From Marsupella aquatica (Eukaryota; Plantae; Marchantiophyta), in assembly GCA_973895155.1 (NCBI GenBank), contig OZ316893.1:22169844-22233843 (forward strand): 64,000 nt of DNA, written 5' to 3'. The notes under the pieces were generated by a model. The model saw only the letters and a list, made by a program, of their open reading frames with translations. It ran no database searches and had not been told where the DNA came from. How positions within the stretch are numbered: the first letter of the stretch is position 1; each line of letters begins with the position of its first letter. The translations under genes and the position numbers were made by a program. Below, in pieces: positions 2,737 to 50,809 of the stretch.

Positions 2737-2844
2737 GTCAATTTAATTAAAAGAAGAAACACTTGCATTAAGTAATGATAGTCAATTCAATTAAAACCAT
2801 GAAATTAGTGAAGAAAACCATGAGGGGAACACAAAACACCAGGT

Positions 2845-3836
2845 GTGCTGGGAAGCCCAATCGGATACAAGGTACGCCCTTCTCTTGCTGCCAGGTTCCT
2901 TCTAGAGAAAATCAGAAAACGATTATGTCACTGGACGAATCGTTGCTTAACTCTGGCGGGAAGGGCGGTTCTCCTAAAGCACGTTTTAAGAGCCATTCCT
3001 ACATACCACCTCATGACTATGGACATCCAGGCAACTGGCTACAAGGAACTTGAGAAAGTATGGAGAAGATTCCTATGGGGTTTGAATCCAAACAAAGGCA
3101 ACAAGAAAGCTCTGATTGCTTTGGAGGACATCACGACTAGCAAAGGAGAAGGGGGGCTGGGAATTCTCCCTTTTCAGGAGCAAGTGACAGCCCTCAAGAT
3201 GAGACACATGTCCAAGATGATTCAGGGGCAACCGGTGAGTGGATCAAGATTGCCCATGAGCTCCTAAGCAAAGGGCTGAGGAAAGGACCAGGAAAAAAAG
3301 AAAAAAAAGGTTGGTCCCCCACTGAAGCGCTGCTACTGAGTACTGACTGGATCAGTACTGGCTCCCCAATGTTGAGGGCTCCTACGTGGGTGGCATGACA
3401 AGAGAAAAAATGTGAATTTTACCTTTGGCAGAGGGGAATTACCGCACACACTCACGATGGAGCAGACTTTGTTGCTCTATGAGAGGGACCAGCAGGTGGA
3501 GACCAGTGAAAGGATCGCTCTGCGGAGATACTTGGCCAACCGTGGAGTGAAGGTGATCTCTGACCTATGGACTGCGCAACATGGATTGGGCGAACAAGGA
3601 AGAACTGCACCTAAAGGTCAGAAGCAACAAACACCGCGGACATAGGATCTTCCTTTTGTTCTACAAGCAACTGAGACAGTACCAAGGACTTAACAAGAAA
3701 CAGCTGCAGGACAGCGACAGATGGAAATGAAATTGGAAAGGGAAGAACAAGGGCTGGTCTTTCCCCAACCAGGTGTGGGGTAATTGTGGTCTGAATAGAG
3801 AGCACGACACCACCAAGATCAACAGGAGATGGGGAC
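2845..3836 (+). mobile_element. 5'-truncated, decayed L1-type LINE ORF2 (post-RT region), left half
   Basis: Translation LGSP...LTLAGRAVLLKHVLRAIPTY...RRFLWG...SKGEGGLGI is typical of plant LINE ORF2 downstream of RT. Frameshifts and stops follow. It ends at N-R-R-W-G at the Gypsy insertion point. Confidence 0.85.
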
Positions 3837-4399
3837 TGTCACACCATTCTAGGTAGTGTTAGAGTGTATTGTACTATCTAGATCCGTATGTTTGGTATGT
3901 GTGCTATATGAGCTGATAAGGTTCCATCAGGTTTGTGTGACAGGGTACTTCTCACTTATGAGGCATTGAAAGGTCATCTTTCAATGTTGAGCCTTGGAGA
4001 GAGAGGAGCTTGAGTGGCTATGGTGGCTGTGAGCTCCGCTTGTGTAACGTGGATTCCTTGAGTAGTGCAAGGTGAATTGGCTTGACATACGTGTGTGATC
4101 GGATCGGTGCGGGATCGATGGGGTATTGTTGACCGGGATCGTTGTGCCGATTGTTGAGCAGATTACATTGAAAGATCAGGACCTTCAAACTCTGTTGTGC
4201 GAACAAAAGCTCAGTCTGAGTTTGTTGTTGACGATTTGCAGTAGATCGAATCGATTGGAGCTGTTGTTTTGATCCATGGTACCTCGGATCGTGGAGTGGA
4301 CTGCCGGTATTTCGATTCGCTATAGTCGGTGTTGAGAAGTTTGTGCTTGATCTGTGCTGCCATTTGACGGACAGTATGCTGTTGTTCGCATTTTTGTGA

Positions 4400-4560
4400 A
4401 GTAGATCGGGCCTGCATCGTCATCGTATGCAGATCTGTTGGGCCGATTTGCTATTTTCGCAAGGGAAACAGCCGTGGATGTTGGTAGATCGGGCCTGCAT
4501 CATCGTCGTATGCAGATCTGTTGGGCCGATCTGTTGTTTTCGCAAGGGAAACAGCTACGG
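4400..4560 (+). repeat. ~83-bp-period tandem duplication in the element's 5' region
   Basis: GTAGATCGGGCCTGCATC..CGTATGCAGATCTGTTGGGCCGAT..TTTTCGCAAGGGAAACAGC occurs twice. Confidence 0.8.
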
Positions 4561-5547
4561 ATGTTGCTGAATCGTGCAACGACACTGCCTCTGTAGCGAT
4601 TTGCAGAACTTGCACGCCGACCTCTGCGTTTTGTTGAAGAAATAGAACTTTGAATGTTGTTGTTTTGGTAGCGGATGCGGGCTGCTGCTGATCAAAGCGC
4701 AAAGGCACTATCGCCTACGTGTTTGCCCATTTCACGAGGGCTGGATCGCGGATTCGCTACGACACGATAGCGTGTCGACGCGCTGCATTTCCGTGAAGGA
4801 AACTCGAGGCCGAAGTGTGGACGTTGCCGAATCTGGAAGTTGGATCCGGCGTAGCGAAGCATTGCTTGGCTCATCTCGGCGTTCAGAGGCTTCGAGGCAA
4901 CTCGTGGTTACTCGAGACAAGGGGCGTGAGGGCGAAGCAGGAGCGGGCGGGCCAGCAAGCTGGTACGTGAGGAGAATTGCAAGTGCTGCCATTTTGGAGT
5001 GGCAGATTTGGTGCATAATGACAAGTGAGAGGTCACCCATCCCAAAGCTATTCCTCCCCTCATGCGCTTAACTAGCAAGTTCCTATGTGGTGCATTGTAC
5101 ATGCTTCCTTCCACACTTGGTGTCCAAGGAATGAGGCCCTAGGGGTTTTATGCACTTTTGAATTCATCTAGATACTCTGTTTTAGCTAGTTTGCGATGGA
5201 TTCTTGAATATTTGACGCGGGATTCTTGAGGCCTATTATGAAGGCCCTACATTGAACTATATGCACATTATTTTCATGTATTTCTGATTGATTGGTGTGG
5301 AGAGTTGTGGTGAATCCTCTTCTTGTTGTTGGATCCTCTCCACACATGCTTCCTGTTTATGCGCCATGTTGGTTTGGCGTGGGCGCTTGATTCTATAGGA
5401 ATGATCCGGGTTTGCAACCGGACATTCTAGTTGTGCTACGTATTTCTCTCTTGGTGATGTTGGAGTGATGCCCAACACACATGGTGAGTGCTTGTGTTAT
5501 TGACAGGGACAGATTGCCCTTAGGATTAGCATATAGATTAGGTTAGG

Positions 5548-7230
5548 TTGGTCACCACAGATTATTCTGGTGCTGCTGGGTTACCCGATGGACGACGGAC
5601 CGGTTTCACTCGGAGTGGGGCACAGTTTTGGCCAACGACATTGGTAGCAGTCAGTAGTGCAGCTTCAGACAGTGATTCTGACGAGGACTCAGTGACCAGT
5701 TCTTCTCGTCATCAGGTGGTTGCATCTTTGTTGTGGGATACGGGCGAGATGTATGGGGCTACAAAGGGCCCACGACGATACTCTGGTGCAGTTGGCACAA
5801 TTGATCTGGATGACTTCATCCAGGAGTTTGATACGTGGTGCGATATGCAGACATTGCGTAACGCCACGTTGTTTACCCCTTTCATGGCATGGAAGGGATT
5901 ATTTTAGCATTTGGAGGGGCCACCCATGGATGACTACCATGAGTTCCGGAAGGCTCATTTGGTTGAGATTGAGGCATGGAGGCAGCATTGGTCGCCTAAT
6001 TACGTGTCCATCACCTATGGCACTAGTGCGGTTGCCCAACCCATTGCCACAGCTGCTGCTTCTTCTAGCAGCACTAGCCAAAGTGGCACACCATCCACCA
6101 CCAGCACTCCAACAGCATCCACCGCTACTCCTGCCGGTGTGATTGTGATAGGAACTGGAGTTGCGCCAGCATTTAACCTTGTGGTGGAATTCTTTGAGGT
6201 ACTGAAGCAGAACTATCAGGGTGTGAGAACTGATAAGTTGAAGGGTCTCCAGGAGTTCCAGCGCAAGACTGGAGAGAGTCTACGTGAGGCATACACTCGT
6301 ATGCGCAGATTGATCATTGTCACCAAGGGAGTGACAGAGGCTCAAGCAGTCCAATTTTGGTATGCAATTCTGGATAGAGAATTGCGACGTAGAGTGAGAA
6401 ATGTCACTCTGCTTAGGGATGCAGATCCCACATTAGCAGTTGTTTTTACCCTTTCTGAGCGCATTGAGCTCAATATGGTGAATGAGAAGGTGGTGACTTC
6501 CGGATTTGCCAAGGAACCACCAAAGGCTGCATCTACATCCACACCATAGCCTACTGCACGAAAGAGCCAGAGGGAGAAGCCTACTACACAAGAGTCTACC
6601 AGCCAGAGATCTATGCCCTCTTATGCTGGACAGCAGTCAGGATGTTGGACCTGTGGTGGGGATCATGCACAGAGATATTGCCCAGATCATAGAGGATCAG
6701 GGGGAGCATCAGCGCCTGATCAGCGATAGTGTGATCACTGTGGAGCTCCTCGACACACCAAGGATAGGTGTTTCTCACTCCACCCTGAGTTACGGAGGGG
6801 AGGATCCCATACACATGATCAGGGAAGAGGAGGCGGAGGTAGAGGTGGTGGACGTGGTCGTGGCATGCCATATGCAGGGAGACAGGGAGGTGACGCTGCC
6901 CCTGCTGTAACCATAGATCCAAAGGATGCTAAGATTGCTCAATTGGAGTAACAGCTAGCTGCCATGGCTAGTTTCTAGGTGAGACCTACTTCTGGTGATG
7001 GGGCATCTACATCCTATGGACCTTCCACATCCCATGGTCCTTCCACATCTTATGGAGCTGATGGAGACCTTACCACCATGGGATTCATGTGTGGCACTGC
7101 ACATATTGATGCATCAGCAGCATTGACACGTGGGGCAACCAAAGCTCTTGAGCCCCGAGGAGCAGTAGTGGAGTTAGATCCATAGAGGGGGGATGCACGT
7201 CGGCAGACAAAGCTTCCTCAGTCTTTTACA
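5548..7230 (+). pseudogene. gag: Gypsy gag (capsid plus two zinc knuckles plus RGG tract), with in-frame stops
   Basis: Frame 1 gives YSGAVGTIDLDDFIQEF...FQRKTGESLREAYTRM (retrotransposon gag), CWTCGGDHAQRYC (~6643) and CDHCGAPRHTKDRC (~6730), then GRGGGGRGGGRGRG. First ATG is at 5749. Stops occur at 5905, 6547, 6727, 6949, 6976 and 7183. Confidence 0.8.
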
Positions 7231-7599
7231 TTGTCAGAGACAGTTCAAACTGCCTCTATGAACCCGGTTCAGACAAACCCTGATGTGGATAAGTTGGTAG
7301 AATCAGGTAGTGATGCAGTAGGGATGACAGGTACCCTGCTGGGGGCGGCTACTGCCATGATACGCACCCCATTATTTCTAGCGACAGACATGCTAAACTT
7401 GGGAGTTGGTCCTGCAGAAGTGTTCAAATTGGTAGCTACACTCTGTGAGGACACTCCAGTGGTTGCTTCCCATGTAGAAGCAGCTTGTAGTGTTGAAGCA
7501 GTGAAGACCATGCCACCTACTACTACTAGTGAGACATGGCATGCAACAGCAGCAAGGTTGATGGATTTACCAGCACGCCCTGCATTTGAGAGGACTAGG

Positions 7600-8050
7600 T
7601 TTAAACCTAGTGTTGTGTCATTGGATAATCAAAGTGGTATCTTCCGATTAGTTGGGCCTTCTAGGGCAGTATACCAGCCAGAGAGAGTGTTACTAGATAC
7701 TGATGCTCAGCCCTTGATGTTGGGTAAGTCTGCCATACGTGGATTGGGATTGCGTCCAGAGGATTTGGAGGATTGTCCCTTTCCCATTCAGACTTCATTG
7801 GGGGGACCTACACCTACACAACACATTATCAGGGGACCTCTTGATTTGAGGATTCAGGAAGGTCATACCACAGATAGCTCACAGATACAGGCGCGAGCAA
7901 TTCTGACTAAGGCAGAGTCATATGATGTGTTGGTGGGATGTACAGTGCTCTACCCCATGGGATTTATTCTTGATTTTTGGGAGGAATCAGTGTCATATAG
8001 ACCTGATTGGCAGTCAGGAGATGCTCGATTGAGCAAATTGCTAGTGAGAT
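7600..8050 (+). pseudogene. Gypsy aspartic protease domain
   Basis: RVLLDTDAQ at ~7684-7710 is the D-T-G motif with G>D. The downstream YDVLVG motif is present. It is in the same frame as gag. Confidence 0.7.
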
Positions 8051-8400
8051 TTAGTGGACCTGTGGGAGGCCCTAAATCCACACCATTGTCTTTGGTAGCA
8101 TTCAGTGGTCTAATTGCTGGACCTGATGATTTGATTGAGGGTAATGCGCATGCAGCAGATGTTCCATCATTGGAGGAGTCTCATAAGGAGCACATCATGC
8201 GAGGATTACCTGTTGGCAGTGTTGTGCCACCAGTGTGGGGCACTGCACATGCCTTTCCACAGACAGCAGCATGATTGGTACATGATGCATGGCATCATGC
8301 TTTTACACCACGGTCAGGAGCAGAGCAGCCTCTTGCAGATGGACCTGTGACTCTTTCACCATTGGATACCACTCCTATTGCTTGGTAGTATCCACCGGAG

Positions 8401-9345
8401 GGTATTTGTTTGTTGGATCTTTTTGGTGGGATTAGCACTGGATTGGCTGCTGTTCTTCAGGCAGGAATTCCTGTGCGTCATTATTTGTATGTGGAGTCAG
8501 ATGAGACAGCACGGAGGGTCTCATTGTGACATGTGGCTATGTTGGTGGATAGATATCCATAGTTGCTACCAGTGGATGTTGTTCGTGGTTATCAGCATGC
8601 ACTACCTGCTGATATTTCATTGTTGGGGGTAGATCATCTGCATCGTGTTGGCCCCATTGATTTGGTGATTGCTGGTTGGCCATGTCAGGGCCAATCTAGA
8701 GCTGGCGTTGGGCATGGACTTCATGATCCACACTCTGCTTTGTTTTGGGAGATGTTATGGATGCTGCATCATCTCCAGTTACATCAGACATAGTCTCTAG
8801 CATACATTTTGGAGAATGTGCCATTGTTAGGTGATGATCGTAGTCGAATTGTTGCCAGTGTTGACCAGGTGAGGTCTTGGATTGGACCTGCATGCTGTGT
8901 TATTGGATGCTGCACGTGTGGGTTCTCGTGCACATCATCCACGCTTGTGGTGGACTAATTTGATCCCATGTGAGGTGCTGAAGCGCGTATTTGACAGTAT
9001 TCCATGCTCACCAGCCTTAGTGGTGGATGATGTTTTGGCTCCAGGGCGTCGTGCACAGGGTGTGACCCAACCTAATAGACCTCCATTGGCAATGGTCAAT
9101 GCAGTTGGGTGCCCACGTTGTGCATTACCCACTCTTGTAAGCCACTCTGCTTCATATGCATTCAGAGCAGGTGGCCCTGGACTTGTGTGGGACACAGCTC
9201 TCCAACAGTTAGTGGAACCTACTGTTGATGAGAGAGAGCGTGCTATGGGATTTTTGACTGGCACAACTGCAGTTGCCTCTATGTCAGAGGGTTTGCGGTG
9301 CCAGGTTCTTGGTCAAGCAATGGACCTAAATTGTTTGACTTGGAT
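8401..9345 (+). pseudogene. C5 cytosine DNA methyltransferase domain (DNMT3-like) inside the Gypsy polyprotein
   Basis: Motif I ICLLDLFGGISTG (8404-), motif II YLYVESD, motif IV IDLVIAGWPCQG (PC at 8680-8685), motif VI YILENV (8803-8820), motif VIII DAARVGSRAHHPRLWWTN, motifs IX/X ERERAMGF...QVLGQAMDL. It has three internal stops (8527, 8560, 8791) and one frameshift near 8890. Confidence 0.9.
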
Positions 9346-9589
9346 TATCAGCTTGGGAGTAGCTGAACAGTTGCGGATGCGCTCTGCTGGAATTATTGAT
9401 TGTCCCTTGCTGAGCTTGCGGTCCACTGAGACAGTACTGACCACAGCTGGGGGCGAGCAGACAATCCATGGACCTATGGTAGGATTGGCCAAGGCTGGAC
9501 AGATTGTTGAGCAAGAAGGGACTACTCAATCTACTACTAAATAGCAATCATCGGCTATCTCTTCTACCCTACAAAGAGATATTAGGGAT

Positions 9590-11100
9590 TTGGTGGAGAG
9601 TTGGGAACCACAGCTTGGCCCTAAGTTGACAGGGGAGGAGAGACGTCGCATGCATCGATTCCTAAAGAGTTACTGGAATTGTTTTGCATTTAGCATGAAG
9701 GATTTGGGGACATTAAAGGGTCCTGGTATTCAAATTGAATTGGCTAGTGATGCGCCAATCTTTTGTAGGCCATACCGTTACAGTGACATGGAGAGAGCTC
9801 TGATTCAAAGCAGAACTCAAGATTTGTTGGAGGCTGGATTGGTGGAGATTTCATATGGGGAGTATGCATCTACCACAATGATGTCAGCCAAGAAGGATGT
9901 GCATGGCAATTACACAGATAGAGGCATGTGTGGTGATTACAGACCCATTAATTGCCAGACAAAATTTGATAGATATGCCATGCCCACACCTGAGGAGATC
10001 TTTGATGTTGTGGGGCATGCAAAGGTTTTCAGTTCATTGGATCTGAGGGCAGGGTACCATCAGCTTCCAATTAGGCATGCTGACAGGTCCAAGACAACAT
10101 TCTGGGGGATTGATTCTTATGGCAAAGATCATTTGTATCAGTGGTTATTCTTACCATTTGGGTTGAAGAATGCACCAGCTGAGTTCCAGAGAGTCATGGA
10201 TCGAATCCTTGCAGGTTTGGATTTTGTCAGATGTTATATTGATGATATTTTGGTCTATTCTTCTACTGTGGAAGAACATCAACAGCACTTGCAGATTGTG
10301 TTGGAGAGATTGAGAGCACATGGGTTGAAGCTCCATCCTAGCAAGTGTAAGTTCTTCCAAGACCAGATTGAATATTTGGGCCACACTATATACCCAGGGG
10401 GATTGGGTGTACAGCAGACTAAAGTGGAGGCCATTACACATATTCCTTGTCCTACTGATGTGAGTAGAGTTCGTGCATTCTTGGGATTGGCGAGCTACTA
10501 CAGGAGGTATGTTAAAGGATTTAGCCAGCTTGCTAAACCTTTGACCATACTCACTAAGTTGGATCAGGAATGGATTTGGGGTGATGACCAGGAGCATGCC
10601 TTTCAGGAGTTGAAGCAAAGGTTGGCATCATCCCCTATTTTGAGAAGACCCATCTCAGGCAGACCATTTCAGCTACACACTTATTGGAGTGGAGTAGGAC
10701 TTGGAGTAGTGCTGACTCACAAGGATGATGAGGGGAATGAGTTTGTTGTGGCTTATGCCAGTAGATCAAACAATTCAGCAAAGGCTAAGTATAGCTCTTA
10801 TGAGGGAGAGTGTTTGGCAGCAGTGTGGGCTGTTGCACACTTTCGTTGCTACTTGTTTGGTAACGCTTTTACCTTGATCACTGATCATCAGCCTCTTAAG
10901 TGGTTAATGGAGTCTGACAAGCTTACAGGGAAGCTTGCAAGATGGGCATTGTTGTTACAGGAGTATGATTTCCAAGTGGTGCATAGGCCTGGAAAAGTGA
11001 ACTTGGATGCAGATGGATTAAGCCGCAATCCATGTACCAGTCAGCAGGATGAGACTGGAGCCAGATGGCATGATGAGTTAGATAAGGAGATGGTGCCAGG
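9590..11100 (+). pseudogene. pol: Gypsy reverse transcriptase plus RNase H
   Basis: RT motifs GDYRPIN, FSSLDLRAGYHQL, LPFGLKNAP and YIDD (10235-10246). RNase H motifs YSSYEGECLAAVWAV, ITDHQPL and DADGLSR. Confidence 0.95.
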
Positions 11101-11339
11101 ATGGCATGCATCTGCCTTTCTTTGTTGGGTGCCAGCATATAGTGGATCTATGGACTCTACCTCATTGGATGGAGTGGATGAGGAGTCTTCAGATGTGGAT
11201 GTTGGTGAGGTAACTTTTGGACAGCAAGATATTCACAATGATGTGAGAGTGTTGGAATATCTGCGCAGTGGTTCTATTGTTGGCAGTGTTGATGCCAAAG
11301 AACGTGACAGGGTTCTACAGAGAGCCAAGAGGTTTTGAT

Positions 11340-12480
11340 GGGAGGGAAACCATCTTTTGAGAGTACTGCATGATGGTAGGGTGTTGGTGGTACCAAAACC
11401 ATCACAACGAGTACATTTGGTGCGACATGCACACGAGGAGTTGGGGCACTTTGGTGTGAAGCGCACTTATAGCTTGCTGCAAACACAGTATTGGTGGCGT
11501 GGTATGCACACTCATGTCCAGCAGTTGATAGCTAAGTGTGTGGTATGTGATAGAGTGAGAACATTATTTAATGCTCCCACTCCCCAGTTGCACCCGTTGC
11601 CGATCATAGGTTTGGGATATTGTTAGATTTTGGATTTTGCTGGTCCATTACCTTTTACCCAACGTCATAATCGGTATGTTTTGGTCATGGTGGAGCACTT
11701 CTCCAAGTGGATTGAGCTAGTGGCGTTGCCAGATAAAGCCAGTGAAGGAGTTGCTGCTACATTTTTGGATCGTGTACTCAGTCATTTTGGAGCACCAGCT
11801 GAGGTGTTGACTGATCAGGGAACTGAGTTCCGTGGAGAGTTTGAGAGTTTGTGTGAACAAGCTCTGATTGATCATCGTACTACCTCTCGTGATCATCCTG
11901 AGGCAGATGGATTAGCCGAGAGAGTTGTACAAACTATAAAGAGAGGATTGCGTAAATATGGCTTGCAGGTTGGTCATCTGGGAGAATGGGATCTCCAGCT
12001 ACCTTGGTTAGCTATGGGCTACCGTTTCAGTCGGCAAACATCACTTGCATCCTTTTCACCTTACTTTTTGCTCTATGGTAGAGAGCCAGATTTGCTAGCA
12101 GCTATTCGTCGTGATGCTGCACCAGTTGTGAACTTGGATGATCCTGATGTTTGGGTCAAGGTGTGTTCAGAGAGAGCACGGGTATTTCATAGAGTGATGC
12201 CCATGGCTTTTGACAACCTTGCCATTGCCCAACATCGTGATGCTTTGAGGTATGCCACTATTTGTGGAGGAGGTTACCGTGCAAGCATTCGATGATTTCA
12301 TCCTGGTGATTATGTTTATTTGTAGCAGACAGCACCCACAACACTTGATATGACCGCAGGCCGGGCAATCTTACGTGTGCGTGAAGTGTTGCCTTCTGGT
12401 GTCCTAATGTTGGAGGGACGCGATGGTATGGTTTGGAAGGATCATGTGCGCAACTGTGCACCATGTCACCTTCCCAACAT
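11340..12480 (+). pseudogene. Gypsy integrase (HHCC plus DDE), with stops
   Basis: HAHEELGHFG...CVVC zinc-binding domain. The DDE core is DFAGP, LTDQGTEF, DGLAER. Stops at 11624, 12293 and 12323. Confidence 0.92.
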
Positions 12481-12524
12481 TGATGGTACAGTAGATCCAA
12501 GCTTGGCACATGTTTGTGCTGGCT

Positions 12525-12670
12525 TGAAATGTATGTTGTGTGGATCTGCTCAGGGAGCAGCTACTATGTTGATTTGTGATAAGTGTTCTAGAGGATGGCA
12601 CATGTCATGTTTGACACCACCATTGCAAATGATTCCTAGTGGATCATGGTTGTGTCCTCAGTGTCGGTGA
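12525..12670 (+). CDS. PHD finger (C4HC3) at the integrase C-terminus
   Basis: KCMLCGSAQGAATMLICDKCSRGWHMSCLTPPLQMIPSGSWLCPQCR* lies in the same frame as integrase. Confidence 0.92.
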
Positions 12671-12976
12671 AGCCGACTAGTTATCATTTGTGTTCTCTTG
12701 GCAGATATGGATTGCAGGTAGGTGATCGATGGGGCTCACTTGCACCCGGCCTCCTGATCTTCACACCTAAAACGGTGTATATCAACCTTGTAGAACTCAT
12801 GGCTAGCTAGAGTTAGCTCCCAGCTAGGGGGGCGATTGTGGGTTTTGGACATGTGTGGACATGAGTTCCACTTGTATTCCATTCTCTTGTGTTTGTGATG
12901 TGGCAGTGTGACTATGTTTGGATGTATGTGACAAGCGATGTATGTTGTATAGCGATGTGTATGCGCACGACAGGAC

Positions 12977-13583
12977 AGACGATCACTGCTGACCATTGGT
13001 GCCAACTGTGGAAGAAATTGTGGGGGGGCTGGACCCTGCCGAAGGTGAGGTTCTTCATGTGGCGCCTACTAAATCATGGGTACTTCACTAATGGCAGGGG
13101 CAGTCACTGGGAGTGTCCGATGGACTCTGCCCGCGTTGCAAGGAGTGCTTCAAAAACAATGACCACCTCTTCTACAGCTGCAACAAAGGGAAAGACCGAT
13201 GGCAGGAAGTTCAGAGATTGATCCAAGGTGCCAGTGGGCTGGAATGCCACAACACCACACTGTACGAAGCCATTACCCGCGCTATTTGAAACCACAAGAG
13301 GAAACCAGGATCACTGATCCTGATCATGGAATTATGTGAAAGCATTTGGAAAGAAAGGAATGCTGCTGCGTACTCCCATTTCCTTGGTCGGCTCCCGGGA
13401 TGGGTGGTCCTCACACAGACTGATCACCACCTGAAAACCATGTTGACTACTAGCACCTCTGCCAAGAAAAGCAAGCAACTACGCAATGTCACTATTGACC
13501 AACTCAAGGTGATTCTTCTCCCTTGGGAGCAGACTGAGAGCCCAATTTCCATTAACACTAACATTGATGATGAACACAGCTAA
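12977..13583 (+). mobile_element. LINE ORF2 C-terminal zf-RVT region, right half of the split LINE
   Basis: WCQLWKKLWGGWTLPKVRFFMWRLLNHG, a frameshifted CxxC...H..C, and SIWKERN motifs. Confidence 0.85.
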
Positions 13584-14150: not shown

Positions 14151-14397
14151 TCGATGTTTTTAGGCCTTGGAGCCCCTAAAATTAAAAAAAATTAATTATT
14201 TTTCAATTCCTATAAAGTTGGAATATTCTAAAAAATTGGTTATATGGACCCTAATGTTCTTATAAGTCTAAAAATTTGATTAAAAAAATCCTATTGTTTT
14301 TCTCAGAAAATTCATAAGTCTTCCCTTTGAACCAATAAAATGACCCTATACTTCGTCGCATGTGATGTGTAATTTTTGTGGAAGTGAAACCCCTGAG
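14151..14397 (+). mobile_element. hAT-like MITE, copy lacking a visible left TIR
   Basis: Colinear with 24914-25173. It ends in AGTGAAACCCCTGAG (right TIR). Confidence 0.7.
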
Positions 14398-15371: not shown

Positions 15372-15650
15372 CTTGGGGGCCTCACTCCAAGGGAGTCCCA
15401 TATTATGAGCAAACTGGGTTAGAAACACCCTAAAAGTAAGGTAAAAAACAAGTATTTTCTACCCATATTTTTTAGAATATTCTAGGAATATCCTAGTTTT
15501 GGATTTTAAAACCCCTATTATTATTAAAGACCAAAAATTGGATTAAATCCCTCTAATGTTCTTCTGCAAAAATTTATATCTCTTCCACTAAACCTATAAA
15601 AAACACTATGCTAATTCATGCATGATGGGTGGGACGAAAATAAGTAACTA
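15372..15650 (+). mobile_element. hAT-like MITE, diverged copy
   Basis: Starts CTTGGGGGCCTCACT (TIR variant) and has internal similarity to 24877-25173. Flanked by the 8-bp repeat GGTGGCCA (15364-15371, 15651-15658). The right TIR is eroded. Confidence 0.6.
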
Positions 15651-17073: not shown

Positions 17074-17165
17074 TTAAAAAAATTAAAATTCTTGCATTTT
17101 AGGGGGTCTGTGGCCCAAAAACTTAGTGGGCAATGGGGAGGCCTCAATAAAATGAGACCCCCAAG
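17074..17165 (-). mobile_element. hAT-like MITE, truncated reverse-strand copy
   Basis: The reverse complement CTTGGGGGTCTCATT...CCTCCCCAT...GACCCCCTAAAATG.AAGAA aligns with the first ~90 bp of 24877-25173. Confidence 0.65.
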
Positions 17166-17247
17166 CCTGAGTTGCACTTTTAGTGTGAAAAGACACACAA
17201 ACTCAAGAGAAGAGTGTAGTTGAAAAATGAATCAAGAAAGATATGGA

Positions 17248-17356: not shown

Positions 17357-19191
17357 CGTTATCAGCACAAGACTCACTGAGGCTGAGCAAGGAGGATAAG
17401 AAATTTTTTTTTCATAGAGCCATGGCGAATTGAGTAACGATTGAGAATTTTAACATCATTGAGTACGAATAACATCAGAATTCGTAAGGACAACAAGGAG
17501 GCTGATTGAATTGCATAAGGAAACTGTCACCTGCAGAATTGATACAGAGAAGAAGAAGAGAAAGAGAACTCATAAGGACGAAGATTGCAGAAGATTGCAG
17601 AAAGAGAATGATAAGGACACCAGACTAAAAAGCGAAATGATACTGAGGATCGGAGGATCAAAGATTGAAGAACCGAGGCATCGAGGATAGAGACATCGAG
17701 GAGAATCGATGAGAACCAAGAGAAGGACAGAAAAAAAATTAAGGAGGCGAGAGCAATCGATAAGCACAGGAGCAAAGGAGATAGAAGAATACAAACCATA
17801 GGAGATTGCGAAATTACTGATCGAGGCTGTCGGAGACGAAGCCTAAGAAATCGATGTTGACAAGCCAGATTGGGGAATCCCCTTTTCTTCCAGCGCTCGT
17901 CCCTGCCGTTTAGCCACTATCGAGAGCAAAGCCACGGACCAAAACGGAGACTACGTAAAGAGAGCTCGAGATCCGAAGAGGTGAAGAGGCAAAGAGATGA
18001 AGCCAACTATTGGAGGCGAAGCAAAGGCTACGCGAGCCTTCAGAGAACCACCAGAGAATAAGACGATTTTGGAAGACCGATGCTGAAGCGACAGACGCTC
18101 GGCGAACCTCAACTCGGACCATTGACGAAAGACACGGAATTAAGAAAAGTGTTGGACACAAAACTCGCCAACATCCGACTTCGCCCACAACACAATTCAA
18201 ATGGCGCAGGCAGCAGCGCCATTGGGATGATCAAAAAGAGCACGAGTGCTCAACAAGCGGACCCTCAATCCCAGTACACCGAAGCACTGATCGTCAACCT
18301 CAATCACCGAGCACTGATCGTCAACCTCAGTGCTTGCCAGGCTTTCTAAATGATTGAGATGAGCAAAGCCGCTCGTCAGGACTAGCCAGACCTCCCGGGA
18401 AGATTGTCAAGTTGTATAACCAAATAACAAGAAAAAGGTTTCCTCTCAACCGATCGGGAGCTCGTGAACTTGAGAAGAGACCTATTACCTCAAGTATGGC
18501 GAATTGAGAAGGGGAAAAGGAGGCCAAAGGAGACGAGCGAAGCCATTCATCGTTACCGGTGCAGCGTTAACATCGAAAGGCAGCCCGATGGAGCTTCTGT
18601 AGAAAAGGCGAGGAAGGCGCTCAGGAAAGTCACAGCGAGAATCGGTACCTTGAGAATCGGGAAGAAAATATCAACGAAACAACAAGTAAAAAGGAGATTC
18701 GAAGGGCAGCAGAAGTGCGCAAAGGGGCCACCAAGAGGGGAAACTGCGCCACATCTACTCAACCAAAACATCGACAAAACGTCGAAGAAATTCCACAACC
18801 GCTAAGTGCACGCTCCATAACCGCAAATAACTGCAAAACCCTCGTTAATTGCAAACTCCATCAAAGAAATTACAGTTCCAAAGCATAATGTGCACTTAAC
18901 CAGGTCACGAGTAAAGAATCACCCATAACTGCACAAACTGCACAATTTAACAAAGGAAATAGCAATTACAAAGGAAACCTTGCAGTTATACATTCACAAA
19001 GAAAACCAACTTAATAAGTGCAAACCCTAAATTCTGCAAAAACCCAAACATTCTTGCTTTACTCGCCAATGACCTAGATTGATCTCCTCAACCCTTTCTC
19101 CACCATTGCATGCGGCAAATGTGCATTGTCTTTTGACTATATATATTATATATAAACACGCACACCACCGCTGCACGCCAGGACCTTAGAG

Positions 19192-22100
19192 ATGACCAAC
19201 CTTGAGAAACTCAACTTCCCCGCCCTGGAAATAGATGGCGGCAACTACCTAGAATGGTCCATGAACTTAAAAGAAAACCTAACCTCGCTAATCCTACTCC
19301 CTGCGATAGGGCTCGCTCAACCCATCCTTGCCGGCGAACCCCAACCTGATCCATTAACTAAAGCCAACGAATCGAAAGCCCTAGTATTCCTGAGATGTCA
19401 CATCCATAGATTCCTACAGAGACAATACATGCACCTTTTGACCCCTCGGGAACTATGGACAGCCCTACACACCCGATTCGACCACCAGAAACTGGTCGAA
19501 TTACCTAGAGCCAGACAAGACTGGCTCAACCTGCGGGTCCAAGACTTTACCTCAATTTCAGCCTACAATAGCAAACTCTTTAGAATAACCTCAACCCTCG
19601 CACTATGTGGCGAGCCAGTTACGGACAAGGATCTGCTAGAGAAGACCTTGTCGACATTTCATTCATTGAATGTGTGGCTATCAACACAGTATCGAAACAT
19701 GAAGTTCGGGCAATACTTCGAGCTCATAGCCCACCTTCTAGTCACAGAGAGAAACCAAGAACTCCTTTTAGTTAACTCTAGAAAACGTCCTGCGGGCACA
19801 CTGCCCTCAGGATCACAGAGTGAAACACATCTTACCGACACCGCTGAACCCTCCACATCAAGGCAGGGCATTAAGCGCAGTAGGAATGGCAACCATAGAA
19901 ACAACCCAAACAGGGGGAGTTTCTTTAACCAACGCCCACAACACAATTTCAGACGGTCCTTTAGTGGACGTGGAGGACGCGATGGACGCGGCGGACGCGG
20001 AGGACGAGGTGGACGCGGTGGACGCGGCGGTGGTAGAACATATAACAACAACCGTAGAAATGATTGGTCACAATCCCAACCACAACGAGAACGCCCAAAA
20101 TGCCATGCATGCGGCATGACCAACCACCTAGCCAGAAATTGTAGAATCCCGCAACACCTTAAAGAGCTATATCAACAATCCCTCAGGGACGGACAAACCT
20201 CTAGGGCATCACCCCGTGAAACCCACGGGGCGTTTATGGAGTCTAGCGACCCATTCCAAGACTTTTCAGACCTACCTGCCCAACCCGAGGCACACTTAGT
20301 GGCAAGTAGCTCCGCTACACCAGATTTAAATAGCCCAAGCACATGTATTATCGACAGTGCGACCACGCACACTATCCTCAGGGATAGGCACCTTTTCCAC
20401 AAGATTACACCCTCACGTAGACCCCTGACCACTATAAATGGCCCTAGCCAAATAGAAGAAGGCTTCGGCCCAGCTTCCATTAGACTACCGCAGGGTACAG
20501 CGATTCACATAGAATCTGCCATTTTCGCCCTGAATGCAACCCGTAATCTCCTCAGTTTTAGAGATATACGAGCAAATGGACTACATGTCCAGACGGGCGA
20601 CACAAGAGACCAGGAAGTGATACACTTGGTTAAAAATACCCCTACGGGGAAAATCATTAAAGAAACACTTTTCTCGTATCCTTGCAGGTTTTATGTAACA
20701 CATATTGAATGCCTGCATAACAATGCCCAAACAAGTGAATTGCCCGCGCTTTGGCATGCACGCCTCGGCCACCCCGGCCAATCAATGCTAACCAAAATAA
20801 TTAAGAATTCAAGTGGCATTCCAATCAATACACGCCACATCCCAGCTAGCACCCCATGCACTGCATGCTCACGTGGCAAATTAATAACAAGGCCCACGGC
20901 ATCAAAATTGCCAACCAACATACCCAAATTCTTGGAAATAATCCACGCCGATGTTTGCGGGCCAATTAACCCACCGAGCGGACCATTCCGCTACTTTATG
21001 GTATTAATCGACGCATCAACTAAATGGTCAAATGTGACACTGCTTTCAACGAGGAACATGGTTATACCTCGTATTTTGGCGCAAATCCTGCGCATGAAAG
21101 CACAATTCCCCGACCACCCCATTAAGACACTAAGGGTAGACAATGCAGGGGAATTCACATCCGAAACATTTGATGACTTTTGCACATCACTTGGCATAGA
21201 CGTACAATACCCTGTACCTCACGTGCATTTTCAGAACGGATTAGCTGAAGCGGTCATTAAACGCCTTCAGTTAATTGCACGCCCATTACTAATGCAGTCA
21301 AAACTCCCCGTCTCAGCATGGGGACACGCCATATTACAGGCTAATGCATTAATCCAATACCGCCCATCGACCTTTAATACCTATAGCCCATACCAAATTG
21401 CTAATGGTATTAAACCTGACCTATCACATCTTCGTTCATTTGGATGTCAAGTAATGGTCCCCATTACTCCACCCAAACGAACCAAGATGGGACCCCAACG
21501 ACAGTTGGGGATATACATCGGATTCGACTCTCCGTCCATAATCCGATATATAGAGCCTATAACTGGCGATGTTTTTAAATCTAGATTCCTAGATTGCCAT
21601 TTTGACGAACATGTTTATCCACAGTTAGTAACCCCCAAACACCCACAACCACCTTTGGAGTGGGAAAGACACTCGCCATTTTGGCAAGACCTTAGAACGA
21701 ATCAAGGGGAGAAAGAAGTTCAAAGAATTTTGCAACTCCACAAGATTGTGGAAGAACTTCCTGACGCTTTCGTTGACACATCACAACTTACCCGCTCACA
21801 TATTCCAGCTACGAGAGCATCTGCCCGCATCGAATTATCAAATGAGCCAGCAAGTACATCCCAACCTCGTGAAAAACGAGGTAGACCCTTGGGATCAAAA
21901 GATAAACAACCACGAAGGCGTGGTTCATCTATACCACCTTCACCTGATGTTGATCATACCGAATCTACATCTCATGAAGAGATCTCTATCCACTACGCAC
22001 ACACAGGTGCGATGTGGGATAGAAATACTACTTCAATAGATGACGCTTTTGCATTAATGGTGGCAACACATATTACTGACGATACACCAGAACCAATATC

Positions 22101-22572
22101 CATCTTAGAATGCCAAAACAGACCAGATTGGCCTGAATGGCAAAAAGCTATAAATGGAGAATTAGATTCCCTACTCAGCAGACACACTTTTGGCCCAGTC
22201 GAGCCAACACCACAAGACGTACACCTAATTGGCTACAAATGGACATTTGTCCGCAAAAGAAATGATAAAGGCCAAGTTGTACGCTATAAAGCACGTCTGG
22301 TAGGGAAAGGATTTACCCAACAACCAGGAATTCATTACGATGAAACTTACTCACCGATTATGGATAGCACAACATTCCGATATCTTATCGGATTTGCCAT
22401 TTTCCATCAACTACAGATGCGACAACTGGATGTTGCAACTGCATATTTATATGGCACTTTAGACACTTGTCTATACATGCGATCACCTCCCAAGTTGGAG
22501 CAACGACGCCGAGCTTTAGCTCAAGGCGCTAAATCGCATATTCCATATTTACATAAGATTATAACACAATGA
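19192..22572 (+). CDS. Ty1/Copia (Bianca-like) gag-pol, truncated within RT
   Basis: Uninterrupted 1126-aa ORF: N-terminus NLEKLNFPALEIDGGNYLEW, RGG repeats, CHACGMTNHLARNC knuckle, protease CIIDSATT, WHARLGHP..CTAC, integrase HADVCGP/RVDNAGEF/NGLAE, RT YKARLVGKGFTQ..QLDVATAYLYG. Homology stops near 22490, before YVDD, RNase H and the 3' LTR. Confidence 0.93.
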   Translation: MTNLEKLNFPALEIDGGNYLEWSMNLKENLTSLILLPAIGLAQPILAGEPQPDPLTKANESKALVFLRCHIHRFLQRQYMHLLTPRELWTALHTRFDHQKLVELPRARQDWLNLRVQDFTSISAYNSKLFRITSTLALCGEPVTDKDLLEKTLSTFHSLNVWLSTQYRNMKFGQYFELIAHLLVTERNQELLLVNSRKRPAGTLPSGSQSETHLTDTAEPSTSRQGIKRSRNGNHRNNPNRGSFFNQRPQHNFRRSFSGRGGRDGRGGRGGRGGRGGRGGGRTYNNNRRNDWSQSQPQRERPKCHACGMTNHLARNCRIPQHLKELYQQSLRDGQTSRASPRETHGAFMESSDPFQDFSDLPAQPEAHLVASSSATPDLNSPSTCIIDSATTHTILRDRHLFHKITPSRRPLTTINGPSQIEEGFGPASIRLPQGTAIHIESAIFALNATRNLLSFRDIRANGLHVQTGDTRDQEVIHLVKNTPTGKIIKETLFSYPCRFYVTHIECLHNNAQTSELPALWHARLGHPGQSMLTKIIKNSSGIPINTRHIPASTPCTACSRGKLITRPTASKLPTNIPKFLEIIHADVCGPINPPSGPFRYFMVLIDASTKWSNVTLLSTRNMVIPRILAQILRMKAQFPDHPIKTLRVDNAGEFTSETFDDFCTSLGIDVQYPVPHVHFQNGLAEAVIKRLQLIARPLLMQSKLPVSAWGHAILQANALIQYRPSTFNTYSPYQIANGIKPDLSHLRSFGCQVMVPITPPKRTKMGPQRQLGIYIGFDSPSIIRYIEPITGDVFKSRFLDCHFDEHVYPQLVTPKHPQPPLEWERHSPFWQDLRTNQGEKEVQRILQLHKIVEELPDAFVDTSQLTRSHIPATRASARIELSNEPASTSQPREKRGRPLGSKDKQPRRRGSSIPPSPDVDHTESTSHEEISIHYAHTGAMWDRNTTSIDDAFALMVATHITDDTPEPISILECQNRPDWPEWQKAINGELDSLLSRHTFGPVEPTPQDVHLIGYKWTFVRKRNDKGQVVRYKARLVGKGFTQQPGIHYDETYSPIMDSTTFRYLIGFAIFHQLQMRQLDVATAYLYGTLDTCLYMRSPPKLEQRRRALAQGAKSHIPYLHKIITQ

Positions 22573-24555: not shown

Positions 24556-24876
24556 AAATTCATAAAGGTGCTAGGCTCTGCCAATTAAATACTGGAATTT
24601 CTCCCCCTTTATTCATGTAGGAAGAACTTTCAAACTAGACATAGTCTTTCCAGCAAGTATGCAATATACATATGTAAGGTCACTCGAGCTTTCAGCTGGA
24701 CAGGTGAAGCATAAAAATATTGTACTTTTAATAAACCAAATAAGAAGATTAACATTTGGAGTGTGATCTAACATTTTAAGAGGAAAGCATTAAAATTTTG
24801 TGTAGGACATGGGCTATGGGTATGGCTGCCCAAATCATGGACATATATATATGATGAGGATGAGGGTATAATCATC

Positions 24877-25173
24877 CTCGGGGGTCTCACTATATGGGGA
24901 CCTCCCCATCGCCTGCGACGTTTTTAGGGCTCGGACCCCCTAAAATGTAAGAAAAAAATTTTATTTTTTAACCCCTATAAAGTTGGAATATTCTTGGAAT
25001 ATTCTAAAAATTGGATTAAAAAGGCCCTAATGTTCTTATAAGTCTCAAAATTGAATTTAAAAGACCCTATTGTTCTTCTACAAAAATTCTTAAGTCTTCC
25101 CTTAGAACCAATAAAATGACCCTATCCTTCGTCGCACGTGATATGCCATTTTTGTGGAAGTGAAACCCCCGAG
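24877..25173 (+). mobile_element. hAT-like MITE, complete copy (297 bp)
   Basis: 15-bp TIRs CTCGGGGGTCTCACT / AGTGAAACCCCCGAG (1 mismatch). Perfect 8-bp TSD TAATCATC (24869-24876, 25174-25181). Confidence 0.9.
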
Positions 25174-31174: not shown

Positions 31175-34100
31175 ATGCGGTGCATGGGCAGATTGTGGGT
31201 GGTGCTGCTGTTATGGAGCTCTCTACTCGGGTCGTTCGGTGCTCAAGGTCCGTTCCCTCGGCTCATTCTCTCGCAGCCCTGCATTCTTCCCCAATCTTCT
31301 TCTTTCCCAAATTAGCGTGTCCCTCTTGTAGGTCCAGCGCTGTAGAGCAATCATGGGAATCCAAAGGATTGAAAATGCGTACTGGGCAAATTGATCCCCG
31401 AATGATTAAATTAAAAACCATCGAACAGGATGAGTGTGACATCGTAAGAGTAGTAAAGTATGAATCTCGGCGAAGGGCAGGGTGAGGACGGGGTAAGCGT
31501 GTTGTCTGAATCTGGGCGAAGGGAAGGGTGATGACATGCTTGAATCAGTTTGGAAGATTGAGAGCAAGCTGTTCCGGATTACAGTTGTGGATCAAGAAAG
31601 GACCATCCGAGGAATGTTGAGGGGTCAGAGGTCGCAATCCGATGCGGATGAGTCCCGCTCAGAAGCAACGCATTCAATTAGATAGCAGGCCCACAGTTGT
31701 AGCGCAGGAGGGGGCGTCTGTAAGGGCATGCTGGTGACGTCAAGGTGGTAGTCAGAGTTGATAGTATGCGTAGGACTAGTGATGCAAAGGAAGAACAACA
31801 CATTCATTGGTCATACTCTTAAAATCTTATCGTAGTTGTCAGATTGGGAGGTGCTTGTTCTGTAATTCCTCATGGCATGGATTGCAACGCAGCTGGGATC
31901 GTAGCATTGGCCATCACGCCAAACTGGCCGTGCCACTTGGCACGGTGACATCGGGCTTTTTGGGACTAGATTGAGTTGAAAATTTGGGCTGTTCGATCCA
32001 GTCCAAGTGTGAGTGTTGTCGTTCATGCTCCTGGGGTGTCGCGTGGTGCCCACAGCCAAGCACTGGCAGATTGCACATGGATTCTAATTGATAGGTGAGC
32101 GATTCTTGGGATGTGATCCGGTATGATGTGGTTGAAAGTACACTTGCTCAGCTGCGTGGGAGTTATGGGAAAGGGTGGACTCGTCACGTAAGTGCTCAGA
32201 GGGGACTCCCGAGTCCCGACAGACTCAGACGGAATTCGACTGCTACTAATCAAGTGCAAAGAATTTAGCTAAAGATTGAGAACTAGATTAGAATTTTCTC
32301 CTCAGACATGAGAGACCTCGAGACCCGGGACCTCGTTTGTAGTGATGCATTTATGTATCCGTTTGCGACGGTACACATCCCTCTTCGCGTTTAGTATTGT
32401 AGTCTGCTACTGTACGTGTACGTTGGAGAACAAGATTTCGTCAGACTCGAATGGTTTTTCTCATTGGAACGGACAGTGAACGGGCATGAAACTTGCTTTT
32501 GAGTTCAGGAAGTACGTGTAGAGAGAGATATTGACATTTGGAACAAATTGGGCATGTTTTCTACCAGGACATCAACAAGGTCAAGGGGAAGATAATTGGC
32601 CATGGTGGGGGGGGTCCCATCCTCCAGGAGTGGGAGACCATCCGCCTGGAGTGGGCCATCATCCGCCTGGAGTCGGGCACCATTCGCCTATCAAAGATGC
32701 CATCTGGGGCTTGCAATCATGGGCAAAGGTCATCACGAAGGACCCACTAGGCATCACGAAGACATGGGTGGGCGATAATCCCTGCTCTAAGGACTATCCG
32801 TGGACGGGGGTTTTCTGTGACACTGACAATACAACAGGGGAGCCAGTTGTTGCTGCCATTGACCTGAATCATGCACAACTCGGTGGGATTATCTCGCCAG
32901 AGCTGGGCTGGGTCGAGACTCTCGCGCTCTTCCACATCAACTCCAATGAATTCGAAGGCACCATCCCGTCAACGTTCAAGAAACTGGGGCTCCTCTCGGA
33001 ACTGGATGTCAGCAACAACTTACTGTCGGGACCGTTCCCCAGGGTTGTTCTACGGATGCCAATGCTTTTTTATTTGGACATCCGCTTCAACAGATTTACG
33101 GGACATCTTCCTAAGGAGGCTTTTGATCTTCCCCTCGATGCGTTTTTCGTGAACGATAATTATTTCGAGGGCACCATTCCGGAGAACTTTGGCATGTCTC
33201 CTGTCTCGGTGGCGGTGTTGGCGAACAACTACATCTCTGGAGGAATTCCCAAGTCAATTGCCAACATGTCGAGCACGTTGAACGAGTTTGTGTTCCTAAA
33301 TAATAAGCTGGATGGCGCACTTCCCTCTCAGTTCGGCTACCTCGACCAGTTGGTGCTTTTCGACGTGTCTTTCAACAATCTGAGCAGCCCGCTGCCCTCC
33401 ACTATTAAGAACTTGCAGAATCTGGCTCAATTTGACATCGCCCACAACAGTTTTTACGGAACTGTGAGCGGGGGCTTGTGTAAACTTCCCAGTTTGGCGA
33501 ATGTGACGATCTCGGACAACTACTTTCTGGGTGAGGATCCATCTTGTGCTCAGCTCGCTTCAAGGGGTGTAATTTTCAATGCCCAAGGAAATTGTTTCAG
33601 TGACTCCGCTTCCTTTCAGAAAGACAACCAGACTTGCACCGCCTTCTACAATAATCTCTACCCACCTTCCCCACCCCCTCCACCTCCTTCTCCCCCGCCT
33701 CCATCTCCTCCTCCTCCATCCCCACCTCCGCCATCGCCTCCTCCACCATCGCCTCCTCCCCCTTCACCGCCCCCACCATCTCCTCCTCCCCCATCCCCAC
33801 CCCCACCATCTCCTCCTCCCCCATCCCCACCCCCACCATCTCCTCCTCCCCCATCTCCGCCCCCTCCCTCCCCACCTCCGCCATCTCCTCCTCCGCCATC
33901 TCCTCCTCCACCATCACCTCCTCCGCCATCTTCTCCCCCTCCATCTCCTCCTCCGCCATCGCCTTCACCGCCACCTCCTTGTCCTCCTCCTTCTCCACCT
34001 CCGCCACCTCCTTGTCCTCCTCCTTCTCCTCCACCACCAGCATTGCCTCCATGTTCTGATTTTTTGCCACCACCACCACCTGAATGGTCCAACCCTCCAC

Positions 34101-34411
34101 CTACATGGCAATACCCCACACCAACGTGGACTGCTTCGCCTCCGCCGCCATCCTGGGAAAACCCTTCTCCTCCACCCCCAATTTGGCACGAGCCTTCCCC
34201 TCCGCCCCCTACTTGGGAAGCCCCTCCTCCTCCAGACGATTGCCCACCACCATCACCGCCTCCTCCATCTCCACCGCCTCCTGTATATGCACCGCCACCT
34301 CCTTGCTCAATGGGTCCAGGGGAGAATTGGCCCCCATATTTGCCCCCACCTCCCCCATGGGTGGTACAGTCACCTCCTTATGGTGCTCCTTCTCCACCCA
34401 GCCACTACTAA
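31175..34411 (+). CDS. LRX: Leucine-rich repeat extensin (LRX/PEX family), 2 exons: 31175 (or 31184)-31247 and 32568-34411
   Basis: Exon 1 encodes the signal peptide MGRLWVVLLLWSSLLGSFGAQ with a phase-1 GT donor that matches the phase-1 AG at 32566-32567. Exon 2 has WVG..C...GVFC, VAAIDLNHA, LALFHINSNEF, DIRFNRF LRRs, a Cys-rich linker, (SPPPP)n extensin and a terminal Tyr. Confidence 0.92.
33660..34040 (+). repeat. (Ser-Pro4)n coding repeat of the extensin domain
   Basis: 15-bp C-rich units encoding SPPPP about 20 times. Confidence 0.95.
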
Positions 34412-50700: not shown

Positions 50701-50809
50701 TCGGCGCTTGGGCTCCAACGCTGAATCTTTTAATCGTGTCCTCGCTAAAGAGCGCAACAGTAAAGAGGAGTAAGCAAAGAGCTCTGCTAAAGGATGGCCC
50801 CCTCCCCAT
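47764..50809 (-). CDS. Secreted glyoxal oxidase / galactose oxidase-like copper radical oxidase (551 aa), 3 exons
   Basis: Exons 50809-50396, 49712-49010 and 48302-47764 total 1656 nt and stay in frame. Signal peptide plus GISSMH, NTWCSSG (Cys), RWYAT, RTYPSAG (Tyr), RMYHS (Tyr-His), FATHS (His) and APPGYYLL. Confidence 0.93.

Follow-up and report, generated by a model that had tools for sequence, protein, structure and literature searches.

The window analyzed here, a stretch of 64,000 nucleotides from Marsupella aquatica, contains a non-functional copy of a Ty3/gypsy element (positions 3837-12972, forward strand) that encodes a cytosine methylase in its first open reading frame (ORF1) and a PHD finger at the end of its second (ORF2), with a conserved and likely leaky stop codon between them. 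Because this stop separates the two domains, the PHD finger likely guides the integrase alone and not the methylase. The reading that we propose, and hold with slightly better than even confidence, is that the integrase PHD finger would act as a tether to the N-terminus of histone H3, in the manner of a chromodomain, and that the methylase would work separately, with cDNA inside the particle as its substrate. The features of the element are collected in Table 1.

Table 1. Features of the element and of the interrupted sequence, in window positions
Feature	Positions	Strand	Basis
Presumed LINE, 5' part, degenerate C-terminal reverse transcriptase region	2824..3832	+	Motifs, frame continuity
Target-site duplication, left copy (GGAC, 4 bp)	3833..3836	+	Sequence; ends from contig joints
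Segment A, terminal, starts with TG, right limit approximate	3837..4164	+	Contig joints
Two tandem 83-bp copies, variable 5' non-coding region	4401..4566	+	Copies 90% alike
ORF1, decayed: Gag (two CCHC-like knuckles), protease, putative DNMT3-like methylase	5542..9544	+	
C5 cytosine methyltransferase domain	8398..9358	+	Pfam PF00145, E 3.1e-7; own profiles; motifs
In-frame stop with CAR-YYA hexanucleotide (TAG CAA TCA), predicted readthrough site	9542..9550	+	Contigs; relatives
Reverse transcriptase (YIDD at 10235) and RNase H	9818..10966	+	Pfam RVT_1, E 6.8e-33; RT_RNaseH, E 6.9e-33
Integrase HHCC zinc finger and DDE core, stop-broken	11399..12094	+	Pfam Integrase_H2C2, E 1.5e-15; rve, E 6.4e-12
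Integrase C-terminal beta segment and linker	12326..12529	+	AlphaFold2 with alignment, three strands, pLDDT 81-93
C4HC3 PHD finger, C-terminal, and ORF2 stop	12530..12670	+	Pfam; motif
Polypurine-tract-like run, adjoins segment B	12826..12835	+	Sequence; same layout in L016, L031, L039
Segment B, terminal, ends with CA	12835..12972	+	Contig joints
Target-site duplication, right copy (GGAC)	12973..12976	+	Sequence
LINE, 3' part, zf-RVT	12977..13290	+	Pfam E 5.8e-4, under the curated cut-off

Extent, termini and age of the element

The ends of the element were set at TG (3837) and CA (12972), because GGAC lies on either side and contigs from four public sequencing runs of the host (4 of the 20 listed) contain joints leading from 12972 back to 3835-3839 and from 4154/4164 to 12835. 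The same joints ruled out another candidate target duplication, ACCAT(T) at 3841-46 and 12992-97. Contig depth is low over 4236-5387. No paired flanking LTRs were found in the window; in place of two identical LTRs, the repeats of the element are split into segments A and B. The window copy consists of A-coding-B only, with no second A within the window, and recombination between two B segments would yield such a copy. Joints of both kinds, A-B and B-A, are present in the contigs of the host.

For comparison, we used 80 metagenome loci found via a methylase alignment (the best 80 of 200 confirmed). The 3' flank was sufficient in 25 of them: the arrangement A-coding-B-A-B is complete in five, partial in 10 and not seen in 10, many flanks being short. 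Segment B of the window aligns at 72-75% with each of the two B copies in L016 and in L010. Target duplications of 4 bp flank L016, L031, L033, L039 and L070, so that the window and five related loci agree in this length; no matching pair was present at L032 and L076. At the inner B-A junction of four loci (L016:14082-14085, L031:13981-13984, L039:13971-13974, and L070:13985-13988), CA is followed by two letters and then TG or TA, a form that resembles a two-LTR circle junction and is also seen at the window joints 12972 to 3835-3839. The purine tract adjoins B, not A, and no TGG-type tRNA primer site was seen after A in the three elements viewed. An Rfam search of the element gave zero matches, and predicted RNA folding is not unusual after the stop, in A, or in B (z -1.25, 1.22, and 0.39, respectively).

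The element interrupts what we take to be a LINE, whose frame runs on across the insertion; the 5' part is labelled so from its motifs and because its frame is continuous with that of the zf-RVT part, and ORF 2824-3267 has no Pfam match. The copy is old and C/G-depleted: it has A or T where most contigs have G or C (A>G 139 and T>C 123 versus G>A 71 and C>T 88), and its CpG observed/expected ratio is 0.43. Thus, the site of the window copy has been filtered by survival. The insertion inside a LINE had been offered in support of chromatin targeting; this argument falls, as a single old copy cannot separate targeting from survival.

Coding regions

Gag, protease and methylase lie in a different frame from RT and RNase H. 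ORF1 of the window copy carries 11 stops and a frameshift near 8890; in relatives with an intact ORF1 (P0124-P0135, P0138), it is 1330-1450 aa long and ends about 100 aa past the methylase. That the element carries its own methylase, as originally predicted, was confirmed by the Pfam match and by our own profiles for the C5-methyltransferase at 8398-9358. The motifs FGG, catalytic PC (Cys codon 8683-8685), and ENV are present, as scored on the alignment, with GWEC being a common variant. The methylase appears to be DNMT3-like, a class that rests on the weak match of a relative, P0124, whose best PDB matches are DNMT3A/B/C (E ~2e-6).

The Pol order of protease, reverse transcriptase (RT), RNase H and integrase with a DDE core (D697, D757, and E792 in P0001 numbering, with the canonical 35-residue spacing) is that of Ty3/gypsy elements, as are the TG...CA ends with a target duplication of 4-5 bp. 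The integrase frame of the window copy is broken by four stops internal to ORF2 (11336, 11624, 12293, and 12323). The C-terminal segment of the integrase is SH3-like in the predicted model. Among the relatives, intact proteins made up of ORF1 only (P0124-P0135, P0138) or of ORF2 only (P0387-P0391, P0193) are common.

A conserved stop codon between the methylase and the reverse transcriptase

Among 306 host contigs over 9490-9600, no difference of at least 2% was observed at 9537-9550, and nine were listed on the flanks. The stop and the CAR-YYA hexanucleotide are also retained in a diverged contig found in three runs. Decay of the window copy was therefore ruled out as the origin of the stop at 9542, which is invariant across the host contigs. 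Among the best 80 metagenome loci, a stop followed by CAR-YY lies between the methylase and RT in 22 of 22 close loci and in none of the 46 distant ones, where 11 further loci were too short for the count, one was without RT, and L052 (43% identity) was assigned to the close group after its stop had been seen. Since the stop is invariant in the host copies and occurs in all 22 close relatives, we place the methylase in ORF1 and the PHD finger in ORF2. The split is not lineage-wide, because the 46 distant loci are without such a stop; methylase and RT share one ORF in the distant subfamily and also in P0006 and P0065, but not in the subclade of the window.

The full CAR-YYA is present in six of the 22 close loci. 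The other 16 have CAR-YY only and constitute one subfamily with CAA-CCC/CCT, in which reinitiation is possible because an ATG directly follows the stop (in the six printed). Upstream of the stop, the residues vary from subfamily to subfamily. A conserved N-terminal RT segment precedes any Met in both the window and L011. UAG followed by CAR-YYA is the readthrough signal of the TMV type (type I), for which a rate of 6-10% in stable plants is given in PMC2754532. The window has the sequence of such a site, UAG with CAR-YYA, and conserves it; judged from these features, the stop at 9542 is likely a programmed readthrough site of low rate. The gene model of a Marchantia relative (P0393, MARPO_0091s0058) goes directly from the methylase end to RT, perhaps because the conserved stop has been annotated as part of an intron.

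Class and selectivity of the PHD finger

The frame 11339-12670 closes with a C4HC3 finger at 12530-12664 and a stop at 12668-70. The original prediction described an intact finger of this class at the end of the polyprotein, and its quoted motif is matched letter for letter, within a broken integrase frame; all eight zinc ligands are present, and the Pfam PHD model (PF00628) is matched at E 7.5e-11 and 42 bits (cut-off 24). The finger also occupies, as had been stated, the position of the chromodomain in chromoviruses, after the integrase zinc finger, the DDE core and the predicted SH3-like segment. Compared with five copies of one sister subfamily, it is under constraint (dN 0.28-0.33, dS 0.83-1.13, dN/dS ~0.3).

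Several features point to the class of PHD fingers that read the unmodified H3 N-terminus. Of 298 fingers of the family, 252 were parsed and 46 were not. At the position of the aromatic-cage Trp, two residues before the His ligand, Gly is found in the window and in 221 of the 252 parsed fingers, and Trp is outside the eight commonest letters, which account for 250 of them. Asp follows Cys3 in the window and in 235 of the 252. On these two grounds, we conclude that the finger is not an H3K4me3 reader. Also kept in the window finger are a Met that precedes beta1 and the P.G.W pocket for Ala1; Asp after Cys3 together with P.G.W is the sequence signature of PHD fingers reading H3 A1/R2. The best PDB matches (among the 60/90 listed) are CHD4, DPF2/3, ATXR5, KMT2C/D, KDM5-PHD1, BHC80, and UHRF1. 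In an alignment-based AlphaFold2 model (mean pLDDT 82; 43 in a single-sequence run), the finger overlays those of DPF3b and ATXR5 at 0.8-0.9 A.

The features that confer selectivity for unmethylated K4 are distributed differently. K4me0-selective PHD fingers have acidic residues ahead of Cys1 (PMC3241642) or an acidic wall (PMC5415848). Neutralizing this wall weakens or abolishes binding; in BAZ2A, H3 binding was abolished when the double acidic patch was neutralized (PMC5415848). The acidic wall is present in 242 of 280 fingers outside the clade of the window and in none of 19 inside; the N-terminal acid before Cys1 is present in 188 of 280 and three of 19, respectively. Five of the 19 clade fingers were placed by similarity and not by the tree, and the acid loss represents one evolutionary event. 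One acidic and four basic residues are found in the window finger, whereas net charge across the family has a median of -4. Decay of the window copy was ruled out as the cause of its acid-poor finger, since the trait is common to the clade. Thus, K4me0 selectivity would be weakest in the clade of the window, where the residues conferring it have been lost. The assignment to unmodified-H3 readers, made originally for this finger, appears to hold for the family on the evidence of the missing cage Trp, the Asp after Cys3, P.G.W, and the PDB matches, and the accompanying claim of K4me0 selectivity is doubtful for the window finger and is weakened in its clade by the loss of the wall and of most N-terminal acids. 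The UHRF1 PHD finger is described as binding mainly through Arg2, with K4me3 costing 3-fold only (PMC3214078).

Lineage and architectures

The RT-RNase H relatives include proteins of Calypogeia fissa (79%), Riccia sorocarpa (81% over 38% of the query), Marchantia polymorpha (with methylase), Closterium, and Klebsormidium nitens; among the integrase relatives are proteins of Tetrabaena, Pleodorina, Gonium, Monoraphidium, and Pseudoscourfieldia. In two RT-RNase H trees (88 and 87 rows, including a subsample of the chlorophyte rows; FastTree and a quick IQ-TREE run; long branches were flagged), the lineage is one clade against the outgroups, with support of 99 and 97. The K. nitens proteins P0432, P0463, and P0486, putative counterparts of published copies, fall inside this clade, and the sole chromovirus protein in the tree, P0402, falls outside. 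The viral contigs searched contain no lineage member.

Two architectures were observed: (i) the methylase precedes RT (the window and all of the best 80 loci), and (ii) the methylase lies between RNase H and the integrase, in a clade with support of 98 that holds the named chlorophyte elements. Most members of the chlorophyte type have a tail of ~330-350 aa behind the PHD finger (in P0017, residues 1500-1852); it has no Pfam match, its atlas matches are all <0.9, and one atlas cluster among them is 24% Mtase_EDM2. A related RT protein, P0493, is listed with PF05869 and PHD and may be a member that bears an adenine methylase. P0530 (cluster of P0391) and P0084 are lineage members under bacterial names in public records, probably through binning contamination.

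Co-occurrence of the PHD finger and the methylase

An integrase-PHD query, biased toward PHD, retrieved 109 polyproteins, 108 with a methylase-like segment and 101 with PHD. For a methylase-only query, PHD is present in 66 of 76 integrase-bearing matches; among the 10 without it, four end at most 75 aa past the core, three end or shift at the PHD finger, and three have a full different tail. At the DNA level, the finger was found in 30 of 33 assessable loci, five being too short. For an RT query, the count was 39 of 40, at a cut-off that excluded five Closterium proteins with ~150-aa tails lacking PHD. In a set of 169 proteins, 151 have a complete methylase and PHD, 14 have PHD and a methylase without the catalytic Cys, and four have a complete methylase without PHD.

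Losses affect either domain. P0038, P0497, and P0316 keep PHD and have no methylase in the ORF, and PHD-less elements, which keep the methylase intact, form one clade with Closterium (support 100). Among 52 labelled tree rows, 36 have both domains, 10 have the reader without a working writer, six have the writer without the reader, and none has neither; an independent-pairs test found one or two pairs, too few for significance. A catalytically dead in-frame methylase remnant was observed in P0004, P0005, P0012, P0019, P0028, P0108, and P0087 (mostly volvocine), all of which keep PHD except P0108, which ends early. Given the high co-occurrence and the proteins with one domain only, the pairing is ancestral but not obligate, and since it traces to one clade, it does not constitute repeated evidence. 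The co-occurrence proposed as a check of the original idea is thus real across the lineage (66/76), but it belongs to one clade in which each domain is also kept without the other.

Proposed mechanism and alternatives

Under the tether model, most ribosomes would terminate at 9542, so that Gag-protease-methylase would be plentiful and RT-RNase H-integrase-PHD scarce, and the protease would then free the mature proteins, cleavage of the polyprotein into separate proteins being the rule (PMC6317226). The methylase and the PHD finger would reside on different mature proteins, with RT, RNase H and integrase encoded between them. The methylase in the particle would methylate fresh cDNA, as proposed for the methylase of such elements in PMC5890265, and the PHD finger would likely still be part of the mature integrase and tether it to nucleosomes. 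There it would grip H3 Ala1-Arg2-Thr3, biasing insertion away from H3K4me3 promoters, strongly in the relatives with an acidic wall and weakly in the clade of the window. In favor of this model, PHD survives with a dead or missing methylase and the methylase survives in the PHD-less clade; for Gypsy-7a_cRei, which has PHD in its Gag-Pol, PMC9940879 gives intergenic insertion at 2.6x chance. Against it, 151 of 169 proteins keep both domains, and the clade finger, being net basic, may not bind H3. The isolated KnitGypsy-Dnmt3 methylase had no activity in yeast, a result that its authors called inconclusive (PMC5890265).

Developed into a mechanism, the original prediction would have the finger read H3K4me0 and bring the methylase there, in the way that ADD acts for DNMT3A, so that integration and methylation are steered jointly. 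The co-occurrence counts (66/76, 30/33 loci, and 151/169) and the acids outside the clade (wall 242/280, N-terminal acid 188/280) agree with such a module, the two domains could be joined non-covalently in the integration complex, and the module is most plausible in the chlorophyte architecture, where the methylase adjoins integrase-PHD. However, the two domains of the window element are ~3.2 kb apart in different ORFs, the losses are uncoupled (10 reader-only versus six writer-only of 52 tree rows), the K4-reading acids are gone from the window's clade, and the co-occurrence goes back to a single clade. As a DNMT3/ADD-like module the idea does not stand for this element, and we regard it as quite improbable. 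A complex prediction for the methylase and PHD of P0006, in which alignments were unused, scored 0.00 and bears on neither reading.

Less improbable, though still unlikely in our judgment, is that the finger of this clade is no longer a histone reader and instead extends the integrase in a structural or nucleic-acid-binding role, or makes contact with a different host protein. The missing wall (0/19) and N-terminal acid (3/19), the charge of the window finger (one acidic and four basic residues against the family median of -4) and the abolished H3 binding of neutralized BAZ2A (PMC5415848) all speak for such a role, but the Arg2-binding Asp, the Met before beta1 and the P.G.W pocket are retained, UHRF1-type fingers bind mainly through Arg2 (PMC3214078), and the predicted model superposes on ATXR5 and DPF3 at 0.8-0.9 A. 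The finger might also act after integration or in transcription, for example by holding nucleosomes without a choice of chromatin, with any bias among old copies arising by later selection. The authors of related cases left this open (PMC6673714 and PMC9940879), and the site of this old copy (CpG ratio 0.43) is survival-filtered; yet the C-terminus of the integrase is the position from which chromoviruses tether (PMC6673714), and we give this explanation the least weight of all.

A wider reading is tentative and about as unlikely as the loss of histone reading. It would make the lineage an old Ty3 clade, spread across the green lineage and equipped with a complete epigenetic kit, that LTR-pair searches would likely have missed owing to the split repeats; its integrase PHD would select H3K4-unmethylated nucleosomes, its DNMT3, produced at Gag level through leaky termination, would pre-methylate new copies in the particle, and its chlorophyte branch would encode a true methylase-integrase-PHD reader-writer protein.

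Relation to known systems

The closest published element is KnitGypsy-Dnmt3 of K. nitens (de Mendoza et al. 2018, PMC5890265), which shares with the family of the window a Ty3/gypsy Pol with a DNMT3-type methylase and DIRS-like split repeats (A-coding-B-A-B); K. nitens P0486 in the lineage clade carries PHD. As published, the methylase of KnitGypsy-Dnmt3 is in the Pol ORF and the family is confined to K. nitens, whereas in the window family a stop parts the methylase from RT and relatives occur in liverworts, Closterium and chlorophytes. The text and three supplements of PMC5890265 contain zero mentions of PHD; its Fig. 4c may already show the finger.

Chromoviruses (MAGGY, Tcn1, Tekay, and CRM) are likewise Ty3/gypsy elements with a chromatin reader at the integrase C-terminus, but the window element has PHD in place of a chromodomain (no Pfam Chromo match in the element), no paired LTRs, and a methylase. 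Gypsy-7a_cRei and REM1 of Chlamydomonas combine Ty3/gypsy with a PHD finger, for which targeting was already proposed; compared by description only, they differ in that neither methylase nor split repeats are mentioned in the accessible text of PMC9940879. EpiLTRs, in the accessible part of bioRxiv 10.64898/2026.05.21.726589, are LTR elements with a histone reader and a cytosine methylase and differ in having a chromodomain, an adenine methylase, and a DNMT4-related enzyme; their authors set them apart from streptophyte Gypsy-DNMT3. The supplements of this preprint, like Fig. 4c of PMC5890265, may already depict PHD.

In the ADD-catalytic module of DNMT3A/3L, too, a single genetic unit holds DNMT3-type catalysis together with a domain that reads unmodified H3 tails, but the window element has no ADD or PWWP match, and its one PHD finger, of canonical form, lies 3.2 kb downstream of the methylase in a different ORF. 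UHRF1, BAZ2, KDM5-PHD1, ATXR5, and DPF-PHD2 are nearest to the window finger by sequence and fold, sharing Asp after Cys3, P.G.W, and a Gly where the cage Trp would be; the clade of the window differs from them in having neither an acidic wall nor a cluster of N-terminal acids. PHD-transposon fusions in general have been published (PMC6673714, PMC8557442, and bioRxiv 10.1101/2021.11.30.470311). In the text available, PHD is not mentioned for the Selaginella Selgy elements in PMC3350952 (term count) or PMC6317226, and the lineage of the window is not described in PMC12344493, PMC6317226, or PMC3350952. Within the literature covered, which held few subscription papers and some texts in part, no text pairs PHD and DNMT3 in one Ty3 element or describes the liverwort and chlorophyte range, the two architectures, or the readthrough. 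The surprise is limited, since Gypsy with DNMT3, Gypsy with PHD, and a reader with a methylase in one element have each been published.

Why retrotransposons retain a cytosine methylase is a question raised in PMC5890265. The lineage provides a natural test set: some of its elements have both domains, others lack PHD or have a methylase that is dead or missing, and the methylase occurs in two positions. If the leaky stop puts the methylase at Gag level, this would point to action on particle cDNA. If true, an integration tether of the PHD type would be a second type of reader beside the chromodomain. Insertion sites of the Marchantia polymorpha relatives Mp_2g26090 and MARPO_0091s0058 can be compared with the chromatin maps of this model plant.

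Genomic neighborhood

The flanks of four related copies were scanned for long ORFs, and an ORF that we take, from its motif, to be PPR-like lies <3 kb from the 3' end of L031. In the window, a copia element shares the insertion region: positions 19156-22572 hold a Ty1/copia element with an open Gag-Pol frame of 1138 aa, truncated in RT. Three host genes, labelled from their translations, are presumably similar to LRR-extensin (32522-34411, forward strand), ribophorin I (42363-43115, forward strand), and galactose/glyoxal oxidase (47764-50827, reverse strand). A family of AT-rich dispersed repeats occurs in both orientations at 14152-14397, 15469-15563, 17076-17170, and 24872-25173 and is probably a small non-autonomous DNA element.
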